Below, one piece after another: positions 54,971 through 56,248 of a DNA stretch of 64,000 nucleotides (positions within the stretch are counted from its first letter, which is position 1; the number at the start of each line of letters is the position of its first letter). The notes beneath the pieces are model-generated. The model was not told where the DNA came from, searched no databases, and saw nothing but the letters and a program-made list of their open reading frames with translations. The translations under genes were made by a program, and so were the position numbers. Source of the DNA: Armatimonadota bacterium (GTDB lineage Bacteria; Armatimonadota; Fimbriimonadia; Fimbriimonadales; GBS-DC). Location of the stretch: positions 1,137 to 65,136 of the forward strand of contig JBBIQK010000005.1 of NCBI GenBank assembly GCA_037442365.1, in the 5' to 3' direction.

Positions 54971-55801
54971 CATACCTCCCTTGTTTCCAAGGGTGTAGAC
55001 TATACCTCCATCCTCCCGAAGGACCAGGAGGAGCCGGCGTGTGATGAGCGCCATAGATTTGCCCTCTTCAGGGCAGGACGCCCATCTCAGGCGTAAAGCC
55101 TTCAGTCGTTACGGGGAACGGCAGCTTGCACCGCATCACTGGCACAACATAGGGTTCAATCAGTTGCACAAGCCGTTGCGCCTGTTTCACTGGGAGATAG
55201 AGCCAGTGCGCGTGTCGCTTCGGACTTGCGTGGATATGCGCCTCCAAACCAAAGTTTGCTTCGAGCGCACCACACAGGCGTTCCAAACCGATTCTGGAAA
55301 AGCACTGCGTCTCTATCTTGACCGAACCCTGTCGTTTGTCAAGTGTGCCATCGTCCATGTACCAGACTGCAAGCGCCAGAGGCGTGTTGAGCAATTCAAC
55401 GATGTTCTCTGGAACCTCTTTTCTCCCATGAGGGTAGAAAAGCGCTCGCAGCTCTGCAAGGAGCGGATGGCATCGGGTGACGAAACGCCAGTATGGGTAG
55501 CCTCTGTTGGTTTGACGATTCATCGGGGATGGTTTCAAATCCGCCAGCATTGCGTGCTTCCACGCCACATAGTCGCGGAAGCGTTCGGCGTGCAAGACCT
55601 GAAGGCGCACGCCGCGCCCGTGCGGTTCGAGATAGCCATCTCCGAGAATCGTGCCAATCAGAAGGTCCTTCATCTTCAGCTCCCGTTCTTCCCTCGGTAT
55701 TGCCCTCTGCAGCGTTCGGTGGACTGCAGGAGGGGTCTACCGATATGAGCCGGTAGGCACCACAGGATTACTCCTGTGGGACGCCACGCCCGTTTGGGCT
55801 A
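54971..55801 (-). mobile_element. group I-type intron 1 (831 nt) at the E. coli U2593-equivalent site, HEG-containing
   Basis: Exon junction GGGTTCAGAACGT|...G|CGTGAGACAGTTCGG. U precedes the 5' splice site and the intron ends in G. GCGU near the intron 5' end can pair with exon ACGU (U.G wobble). GNRA-capped hairpin CCCTTGGAAACAAGGG. Confidence 0.8.
55068..55673 (-). CDS. double-motif LAGLIDADG homing endonuclease (in intron 1)
   Basis: LIGTILGDGYLE and LAVWYMDDGTLD motifs about 100 aa apart. 201 aa. The last ~17 codons overlap the conserved intron core. Confidence 0.85.
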   Translation of the reverse strand: MKDLLIGTILGDGYLEPHGRGVRLQVLHAERFRDYVAWKHAMLADLKPSPMNRQTNRGYPYWRFVTRCHPLLAELRALFYPHGRKEVPENIVELLNTPLALAVWYMDDGTLDKRQGSVKIETQCFSRIGLERLCGALEANFGLEAHIHASPKRHAHWLYLPVKQAQRLVQLIEPYVVPVMRCKLPFPVTTEGFTPEMGVLP

Positions 55802-55883
55802 ACGTTCTGAACCCAGCTCGCGTGCCGCTTTAATGGGTGAACCCCCCAACCCTTGGGACCTTATTCAGCCCCAGGATGCGACG

Positions 55884-56248
55884 CATGGTACTCCACTGTT
55901 TCCAGTGGCACAGACTATCGCATCACCTTGACCATCGCCTGTCAAGGGTTCGGCGTATGATGAGCGCCGTAGATTTGCCCCATTCAGGGCAAGACGCCCA
56001 TCTCAGGCATGAAGCCTTCAGTCGTTACGGGGTCAGAGGAGCTTGTATTCCATTACTGGAGGTACATAGGGACGGGAATGCTGGCGATGCCCGTCGCTTT
56101 GTACCGTGCTGCAGAAAGTGTGCAGCATTTTCGGCTCCTCGACTTCCCACGGGATTACCCTCGCCAATCGGGGGAGGATTGCGTTAGGGCTTCCCCGTTA
56201 TCAGCCGAATTTTACCTGAAGAGTCGCCTCTTCAGGGGCCCTTCGTTG
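55884..56248 (-). mobile_element. group I-type intron 2 (365 nt, ORF-less) at about E. coli U2511
   Basis: Junction GATGTCGGCT|CAACGAAGG...CCATG|CGTCGCATCCTGGGG. U at -1 and terminal G. GGCC near the 5' end pairs with exon GGCU. Shares a 75-nt block (about 69/75 identical) and the P9-like GAAA hairpin with intron 1. Confidence 0.75.

Follow-up and report, generated by a model that had tools for sequence, protein, structure and literature searches.

Four group I introns in one Armatimonadota 23S rRNA gene: site-specific lineages and an apparent exchange of a ribozyme block

The ribosomal RNA (rRNA) operon in a 64,000-nucleotide stretch of DNA from an Armatimonadota bacterium (contig JBBIQK010000005.1 of assembly GCA_037442365.1; this whole stretch is called the window below) has a 23S rRNA gene that is interrupted by four group I introns. 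They are numbered as inserts 1 to 4 by increasing coordinate, and each is named after the E. coli 23S position that precedes it:

54661..59960, minus strand: 23S rRNA gene with four group I introns, placed by its Rfam LSU_rRNA_bacteria match
54969-55801, minus strand: insert 1, 833 nt, L2593 group I intron, after E. coli U2593
55884-56248, minus strand: insert 2, 365 nt, L2511 group I intron, after E. coli U2511
56498-57413, minus strand: insert 3, 916 nt, L2262 group I intron, after E. coli U2262
57717-58035, minus strand: insert 4, 319 nt, L1931 group I intron without an open reading frame, after E. coli U1931

It is probable that each intron of this gene comes from its own site-specific lineage of intron and homing endonuclease, that the four stand at different stages of the homing cycle, and that a block common to inserts 1 and 2 has been partly homogenised by gene conversion. 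The observations that carry this reading are the positions and boundaries of the inserts, remnants of an open reading frame (ORF) in insert 2, orthologues of the inserts in other genomes, helices supported by covariation, and trees that are incongruent between parts of the same introns. An initial annotation of the window had arranged the inserts in two homologous pairs, each with one ORF-containing and one ORF-less member. The first pair stands, in that inserts 1 and 2 have specific alignment scores (z = 52), and the second does not, since introns of related genomes at two other sites, L2604 and L1923, have the motifs common to inserts 3 and 4 in equally conserved form. Intact LAGLIDADG ORFs do occur only in inserts 1 and 3, as had been described, but insert 2 is not simply devoid of a gene, since it holds gene remnants.

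Comparisons refer to about 60 related rRNA loci (three-digit handles such as L003, as distinct from intron sites such as L2593), which were gathered from the DNA around homologues, from a scan of species-representative genomes for the P7/P7.1 motif, and from a metagenome scan for similar motifs. The closest named homologues of the endonuclease genes in inserts 1 and 3 (ORF1 and ORF3) are from hot-spring metagenome-assembled genomes (MAGs) of Armatimonadota and Fimbriimonadales. The closest genome is that of Fimbriimonadales bacterium KatS3mg018 (AP024673.1), whose spliced 23S rRNA differs from that of the window at 17 of 2867 positions, and whose only introns are L1931 and L2593, with none at 2262 or 2511.

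The block shared by inserts 1 and 2

The likeness of inserts 1 and 2 was first described as a 75-nt match, about 69/75 identical, between 55042-55116 and 55958-56032. The count is exactly 69/75 without gaps, and the full tract is 82 nt long, running from CCCCGTAACGAC to ACGCCG with 75/82 identical positions (55035-55116 versus 55951-56032). The GAAA-capped hairpins that had been seen near both 3' ends were also located, and they form P9:

55035..55116, minus strand: shared block in insert 1, with the P7 5' strand, the P7.1 hairpin, the P7.2 helix with its inner hairpin, and the start of P3'
55951..56032, minus strand: shared block in insert 2 (P7, P7.1, P7.2, P3')
54978..54993, minus strand: GAAA-capped P9 hairpin of insert 1, in which relatives show compensatory changes
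55893..55908, minus strand: GAAA-capped P9 hairpin of insert 2, in which relatives show compensatory changes

When local alignments are compared with shuffled sequences, inserts 1 and 2 reach z = 52 and inserts 3 and 4 reach 8.7, while all cross pairs stay below 2. Insert 2 scores 161-187 against the L2593 introns of Armatimonadota and 56-93 against other IA-type introns (L2500, L1951, and L2593 of other phyla), and shuffles score at most 64. These sequence scores support a specific relationship between inserts 1 and 2, beyond the generic group I consensus.

Inserts 1 and 2 are both ribozymes of the IA type and are extended by P7.1 and P7.2. Between the P7 5' strand and P3', each contains the P7.1 hairpin and a P7.2 helix of 9 bp that encloses another hairpin, and the arrangement is supported by covariation. 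In an alignment of the 3' halves of 15 sequences, the consensus helices P7, P7.1, P7.2 and P9 are 97.5% paired, compared with 82% for shuffles and at most 46% for slid controls, and 17 of the 27 pairs in the consensus of the insert 1/2 family show compensatory (double) changes. The minimum free energy fold of insert 2 contains P2 to P9 (z = -6.5). The upstream end of the shared tract is P6', and its downstream end is ACGCCG, after which the next bases (G versus AA) have to pair with the P3 5' strand of each intron itself.

The IA-type family with the same P7/P7.1 motif is also present in a protein-coding gene of Anaerolineales and Verrucomicrobiota MAGs (L011 at about 3667 on the minus strand, L019, and L024 at about 1243), where the intron site lies within the codons of the ..AEMGSGKTT.. 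nucleotide-binding motif of a large helicase-like protein.

Consider now how the likeness varies along the introns, when these are divided at conserved anchors into a 5' segment, the block and a 3' segment. Insert 2 is 77-94%, 75-87% and 93-96% identical to the Armatimonadota L2511 introns in these three parts, respectively, and 57%, 91% and 55% identical to insert 1. This means that inserts 1 and 2 are mutually closest in the 82-nt block only, and that elsewhere each is nearest to same-site introns of other genomes. In neighbour-joining trees, the Armatimonadota L2511 clade has 100% bootstrap in both the 5' and the 3' segment, the L2593 clade has 100% in the 5' and 59% in the 3' segment, and in the block tree the L2511 and L2593 sites are intermixed (the placements of L025 and L021 were disregarded, because their blocks were miscut). 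Outside the block the paralogue differs from insert 2 at 86 positions and the orthologue at 13, while inside it the corresponding numbers are 7 and 11 (Fisher p = 4e-5). The block of insert 2 is 7 columns away from the L2593 blocks of both the window and KatS3mg018, and 11-24 columns away from those of its L2511 orthologues.

Some of this likeness belongs to the whole family. Of the 82 block columns, 36 (about 44%) are invariant in family members of other phyla and other sites (L2500, L2511, L2593 and the protein gene), so that about half of the 69/75 match is family-wide. It could then be argued that the block is alike purely as the most constrained part of the ribozyme core, with no exchange at all, and this account gains from the invariance of those columns across phyla and insertion sites and from the structural selection on every block helix. 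Constraint does not, however, explain why blocks at different sites of the same genome should differ less (by 2-12 columns in seven of eight genomes) than same-site orthologues do (11-24). In the eight distinct genomes that carry both introns, the mean block difference is 9.5 within a genome and 12.7 across genomes (permutation p = 0.004), and together with the Fisher test above this makes constraint alone an unlikely account of the block, if one that retains some weight. Variable stem and loop variants are, moreover, common to both sites within a genome. Both introns of L003 have the P7.1 loop GCAAC, the variant GGGTTGTCC/GACGCCC is present in both introns of L037, and in L037 and L061 the two blocks differ at just 2 and 3 columns, respectively, with distinctive stem variants in common.

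Joint inheritance of two introns in the absence of exchange predicts equal cross-site distances within and between genomes. From the excess of similarity within genomes we therefore infer gene conversion as the cause of the tree incongruence. On balance we lean slightly towards a history in which the module made up of the P7 5' strand, P7.1, P7.2 and the start of P3' has repeatedly been copied by gene conversion between paralogous introns 82 bp apart, in which the rest of each intron and its endonuclease gene have remained site-specific, and in which the endonucleases of sites 2511 and 2262 have target specificities not previously described.

Another origin of the shared block was considered and rejected, namely that Armatimonadota L2593 introns recently acquired both an endonuclease gene and the block from an L2511 neighbour. 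Other phyla have L2593 introns (L025, L026) that combine a LAGLIDADG_2 gene with the same short P7.1, and such a chimera would therefore be old, with only the fine-scale homogenisation being recent.

Endonuclease genes and their loss

The intact genes and the fragments of the decayed one are the following:

55068..55673, minus strand: ORF1, intact LAGLIDADG_2 homing-endonuclease gene of 201 amino acids in the P6 loop of insert 1 (PF03161, 128 bits)
56486..57121, minus strand: ORF3, intact LAGLIDADG_2 homing-endonuclease gene of 211 amino acids at the 3' end of insert 3 (PF03161, 147 bits)
56033..56128, minus strand: remains of a decayed endonuclease gene within the P6 loop of insert 2, found by alignment with ORF-bearing L2511 introns
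56121-56128, minus strand: start of the remnant in insert 2, ATGCTGCA
56083-56116, minus strand: decayed middle piece of the remnant, matching ..AVWYMDDGHR..
56033-56074, minus strand: last 14 codons of the remnant, ..RPYVPPVMEYKLL, with the stop

Both intact genes lie far above the PF03161 cut-off of 25 bits. They are single-motif genes with the same lengths as their homologues, and they are 32% identical to each other. ORF1 has 212 homologues, with 70-84% identity among close relatives, and its final 19 codons (stop included) extend into the shared block. ORF3 has more than 1000 homologues, is 74-91% identical to those in Armatimonadota and Fimbriimonadales MAGs, and overruns the downstream exon by 12 nt, stop codon included. 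In the endonuclease tree, the proteins group by insertion site into L2593, L2511, L2500 and L2262 clades with 93-100% bootstrap, ORF1 falling in the L2593 and ORF3 in the L2262 clade; a grouping of L2511 with L2593 is not resolved in this tree. One ORF1 homologue, L027, had no detectable 23S context. On the plus strand, antisense within ORF3, Rfam gives a weak Guanidine-II match (56800-56833, 21 bits, E = 0.33), which is almost certainly due to chance.

The remnants in insert 2 were read against two L2511 introns that contain the ORF, one in L003 (856 nt) and one in L006 (554 nt). In their full form, L2511 introns are 850-857 nt long and carry a LAGLIDADG_2 gene of 194 amino acids in the P6 loop, with 36-38% identity to the L2593 gene (ORF1); an intermediate form of 554-598 nt has truncated genes, and an ORF-less form has 356-372 nt. 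Since start, middle and end fragments are all kept in insert 2, its ORF-less state is derived: the ORF was lost, and the lost gene was the L2511 lineage's own. The deletion architecture of insert 2 is also found in L040 and L053, which have diverged since, while L043 and L051 have other deletions. The ribozyme thus long outlives its endonuclease gene, because at least three genomes (the window, L040 and L053) still have one ORF-less L2511 architecture, in copies that have since diverged.

The initial annotation had offered two histories for a pair such as inserts 1 and 2, the first being spread of the intron to a second site in the same gene, for example by reverse splicing, followed by loss of the ORF. 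The loss is confirmed for insert 2, but insert 2 is very improbable as a recent copy of insert 1 at position 2511. The block is indeed 91-92% identical, the P9 hairpins, the position of P6 and the overall architecture match, and CGU opens both 3' exons. Outside the block, on the other hand, identity to insert 1 falls to about 55-57%, against 77-96% to L2511 introns of other genomes; the remnants match the 194-amino-acid L2511 gene and not the 201-amino-acid L2593 gene; L2511 introns are present in Actinomycetota and other MAGs; and the nearest genome, KatS3mg018, has insert 1 but not insert 2.

The second history, invasion of one copy by an ORF, would make the ORF-less members ancestral and have a free-standing LAGLIDADG gene enter one member of each pair later. 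LAGLIDADG_2 genes are found in two types of ribozyme (the IA type, with L2500, L2511 and L2593, and another type, with L2262) and at differing positions within the introns, from which it follows that endonuclease genes have moved between ribozymes at some time, and L2593 introns carry either LAGLIDADG_1 or LAGLIDADG_2 genes. That such a move explains the present pairs has only a very slim chance, because the three fragments in insert 2 mean loss rather than absence and because intermediate deletion forms exist. The sequence of insert 4 gives no direction, and its ORF-bearing orthologues are 100% colinear with it outside the ORF.

As judged from their distribution, the L2511 and L2593 lineages are old and site-specific, and they occur in other genomes and phyla. 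Many Armatimonadota-like loci have L2511 introns, as do three MAGs of Actinomycetota. Orthologues of insert 1, 832-835 nt long and at the same site, are present in L003, L006, L009, L017 and L023. L2593 introns also have both full and ORF-less forms (the latter 260-322 nt, of the insert 1 type in L044, L047, L051, L053 and L059), so that L2511 and L2593 members each undergo ORF loss independently. LAGLIDADG_2 genes accompany a short P7.1 in L2593 introns of other phyla too (L025, L026), and in L015, an L2593 intron from Actinomycetota, the gene is an I-CreI-like LAGLIDADG_1 gene and the P7.1 hairpin is a different one. An apparent ORF-less L2593 intron in L002 was set aside, as it actually lies after U2604.

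Introns at U2604 are present in L002 (6967-7324), L008, L016, L021, L022, L043, L057 and L065, with 358 nt in the form without an ORF and 724-761 nt in the form with a LAGLIDADG_1 ORF, and some relatives have an intron at U1923 (669 nt, LAGLIDADG_1); the 23S gene of the window has neither. The Acidobacteriota MAG GCA_040755335.1 (L026) has at least five introns in one 23S fragment, at about 1951, 2262, 2500, 2593 and 2656, and three of them have LAGLIDADG_2 ORFs.

Inserts 3 and 4, intron boundaries and splicing

Several motifs had been listed as common to introns 3 and 4. The motif GCTATATGCTGGRAASTCCG is at 57353-57372 in insert 3 and 57972-57991 in insert 4, GCGGACAAYCAGCAGGRAAG is at 57244-57263 and 57878-57897, and the 8-bp hairpins near the 5' ends are at 57382-57401 and 58002-58021; all these are confirmed. 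The third motif, CCTCAACGAC, falls away as a homology, since it lies in J6/7-P7 of insert 3 (57223-57232) but in the P8 hairpin of insert 4 (57820-57829), where the true counterpart is CCTCAGAGAC at 57843-57852. The shared 20-mers agree at 18/20 positions between inserts 3 and 4, and the L2604 intron of L002 likewise agrees with insert 3 at 18/20 for both motifs; L1923 introns have recognisable versions of the same motifs. With a background maximum of about 60, insert 4 scores 126, 110 and 101 in local alignment with L2604 introns, 101 with insert 3, and 90 and 87 with L1923 introns, while insert 3 scores 101-75 with L1931 introns and 92-63 with L2604 introns.

Judged from these alignments, the homology of inserts 3 and 4 is that of a structural subgroup, and they share only its core motifs. 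L1931 introns are known both with and without a LAGLIDADG_1 ORF. In L002 and L023 the L1931 lineage has such an ORF of about 440 nt (GFVDGEGCF) in the P6 loop, a place taken in insert 4 by a clean hairpin, and the LAGLIDADG_2 gene of insert 3 lies at its 3' end; the two inserts are therefore not an ORF-plus/ORF-minus pair of one element. It had been proposed that shared blocks might turn out to be generic core consensus, with the nearest relative of each insert in a different lineage. This describes inserts 3 and 4, and it describes one half of the situation for inserts 1 and 2, where same-site orthologues are nearest and the two lineages are still linked by their blocks.

The operon, one of its kind in the window, lies on the minus strand in the order 16S, tRNA, tRNA, 23S, 5S (Rfam SSU, LSU, 5S and tRNA matches), and the spliced exons of the 23S gene add up to 2867 nt. 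Features that bear on the placement of the inserts, together with the other rRNA genes, are:

55802..55883, minus strand: exon between inserts 2 and 1, 82 nt, equal to E. coli 2512-2593
58024..58032, minus strand: internal guide sequence of insert 4, UUCGCUGCC, complementary to the ligated exons GGU|AGCGAA (P1 and P10)
60294-61822, minus strand: 16S rRNA gene (Rfam SSU match)
54455-54571, minus strand: 5S rRNA gene (Rfam 5S match)

Boundaries were set by the bacterial exon consensus, by the U|...G rule and by intron-free exons of relatives, and the same boundaries are seen again in dozens of related loci. All four sites are within or close to the peptidyl-transferase region. The exon between inserts 3 and 2 has 249 nt, equal to 2263-2511, so that both exons between inserts match the E. 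coli spacing exactly. Insert 1 is bounded as ...CAGAACGU | UAGCCC...UAUGUG | CGUGAGAC, insert 2 as ...GUCGGCU | CAACGAAGGG...UACCAUG | CGUCGCAUCC, and insert 3 as ...GGUCGCCU | CAACAUGG...GGAAUUG | CCUAAACGG. Removal of insert 2 leaves a ligated exon that is identical to the bacterial consensus GGCUCGUCGCAUCC, and its boundaries are identical in more than 20 other L2511 introns. The boundaries of insert 4 are fixed by the intron-free exon GGTCCTATGGTAGCGAAATTCC in L003 and L008, from which it follows that insert 4 ends in A. Several U|...G combinations in which insert 4 would end in G were tried and rejected, as every one of them would have changed an exon that is universally conserved, in its length or in its sequence.

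U is the last nucleotide of each of the four upstream exons (U2593, U2511, U2262 and U1931), and the terminal G (omega G) is present in inserts 1, 2 and 3 (...UGUG, ...CAUG and ...AUUG). The guide UUCGCUGCC of insert 4 pairs perfectly with GGU|AGCGAA and is kept in all Armatimonadota-type L1931 introns; candidate guides read from the sequence are GGCC for insert 2 and GCGU for insert 1. With the Rfam model RF00028, which has a gathering threshold of 50 bits, insert 4 (61.5 bits, 57781-58042) and insert 3 (59.5 bits, 57161-57424) are both above threshold, and the core helices of these two are taken from the Rfam alignment. Insert 4 ends in ...GCGAUA (57717-57719 = AUA) and has no terminal G. 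The same ending is found in every Armatimonadota-type L1931 intron, in more than 10 loci (including L002, L006, L017, L023, L029, L033, L040, L043 and L052), while the L1931 introns of Planctomycetia and Actinomycetota MAGs have the terminal G.

Orthologues of insert 3 are present in L002, L008, L026, L033 and other loci. Three of the 17 exon differences from KatS3mg018 are at E. coli 2265, 2269 and 2270 (56489-56495), 3-8 nt downstream of the L2262 site. The version in the window, CCTAAACGG, also follows the site in the Armatimonadota-type genes with L2262 introns that were checked (L002, L008 and L001), and the distant L026 has CCTAAAATG. This looks like the pattern expected of co-conversion of the flanking exon during homing, or of a target-site variant.

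Several points weigh against the reading given here. Insert 2 reaches only 29.7 bits with RF00028 (E = 6e-5, 55892-56258, in a region-limited search), and insert 1 has no match to the model, because its ORF splits the core. The absence of the canonical terminal G may impair the second step of splicing in insert 4. That the inserts are spliced would follow from their location in an essential, universally conserved rRNA, and both splicing and endonuclease activity are predictions from sequence. As regards the exchange, the block is short (82 nt, 36 columns invariant) and bootstrap values in its tree are modest (55-78%). The two introns of L006 differ at 22 block columns, so that any exchange would be sporadic and not continuous, and since the block of insert 2 is equally close (7 columns) to insert 1 and to the L2593 intron of KatS3mg018, no conversion can be dated to the genome of the window. 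The comparison sequences are, furthermore, mostly from metagenome assemblies.

The course of events that we propose would be as follows. An intron-free allele would be invaded after endonuclease cleavage and repair, the endonuclease gene would decay once empty sites run out, and the ribozyme would be retained, since the rRNA still needs splicing. Inserts 1 (L2593) and 3 (L2262) would represent the stage with intact single-motif LAGLIDADG_2 genes; insert 2 (L2511) would have lost most of its own gene by at least two internal deletions, with fragments remaining; and insert 4 (L1931) would have a clean P6 hairpin in place of the LAGLIDADG_1 gene of its relatives. Inserts 1 and 2 would be paralogous ribozymes from an old split, and the likeness of their blocks would have two causes, one being the roughly 44% of columns that are fixed in the family, and the other repeated copying by gene conversion in Armatimonadota. 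The conversion tract would halt where P6' and P3'/P8 need their site-specific partners. By this account the four introns follow the ordinary life cycle of mobile introns, and module exchange between neighbours appears to be the sole feature that goes beyond it.

Elsewhere in the window, upstream of the neighbours of the operon, two adjacent G+C-rich palindromes, GGTTCCCCCTGCGCGCAGGGGGAACC and GGTTCCCCTCGCTTGCGGGGGGAACC, occupy intergenic DNA (52085-52165, plus strand).

Comparison with known systems

The I-CreI intron of Chlamydomonas is a chloroplast L2593 LAGLIDADG intron. Among bacteria, L2593 introns with LAGLIDADG genes are known from Synechococcus sp. C9, S. lividus C1 and Thermosynechococcus, and thermophilic cyanobacteria provided the first case of multiple LAGLIDADG-encoding group I introns in one bacterial large-subunit rRNA gene (L1917, L1931 and L2593), at a time, 2007, when three introns in one bacterial rRNA gene were deemed surprising (PMC1995217). 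Insert 1 resembles these L2593 introns (PMC1995217) in its site, its short P5 and P2, its P7.1/P7.2 extension of about 65 nt and the location of its ORF in a peripheral loop reaching into the core, and in its 5' ribozyme segment it shares 66-72% identity with L2593 introns from other phyla. It differs from the Actinomycetota L2593 intron of L015, which has an I-CreI-like LAGLIDADG_1 gene and another P7.1, where insert 1 has LAGLIDADG_2 (PF03161), and its block, with 57-63% identity to L2593 introns from other phyla, is nearer to those at L2511 (74-91%).

The introns in rRNA genes of bacteria of the candidate phyla radiation (CPR), at 1917, 1931, 1952, 2593, 2604 and 2657 (PMC11270868), show many of the same features. 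Many of them lie in a cluster around the peptidyl-transferase centre, forms with and without an ORF share a site and are highly similar outside the ORF, there are degenerate ORFs with large deletions, the endonucleases group by site, and ectopic transposition was suggested (PMC11270868). The differences are that the CPR are another phylum than Armatimonadota/Fimbriimonadales, that neither 2262 nor 2511 is one of the positions named, and that no ribozyme module is described there as passing between two introns in the same gene (PMC11270868). In Coxiella burnetii (Raghavan et al. 2007), two group I introns of the 23S rRNA gene, Cbu.L1917 and Cbu.L1951, are reported to be separated by an exon of 34 bp, compared with 82 bp here, and their sites differ from those of the inserts in the window; one of these Coxiella introns is also reported to have no terminal G, like insert 4, and it is the only precedent that we noted.

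Our literature searches returned nothing relevant on introns at 2511 or 2262 or on introns of Armatimonadetes, and no account of group I introns in the same gene undergoing gene conversion with each other, which is absence of evidence only. Few bacterial rRNA introns were known for a long time, many were later found in CPR bacteria, and the same crowding is now seen in thermophilic Armatimonadota, with two added sites, 2511 and 2262, that are unnamed in the searchable literature. The L2511 and L2262 enzymes and those of LAGLIDADG_2-type L2593 introns are candidates for new homing-endonuclease specificities against conserved rDNA targets. The block exchange, if true, would be a tangible example of ribozymes recombining by modules, and it would imply that short conserved intron blocks may mislead intron phylogenies.

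In the model of Goddard and Burt, homing endonucleases are said to cycle through invasion, degeneration and loss. The introns described here agree with such a cycle, in that intact, partly deleted and fully deleted ORFs as well as empty sites are found for L2511, L2593 and L1931 among close relatives, and every stage in the decay of an endonuclease gene is thereby visible side by side. They differ from it in that the L2511 ribozyme, having become ORF-less, has lasted long enough to diverge among three genomes or more.

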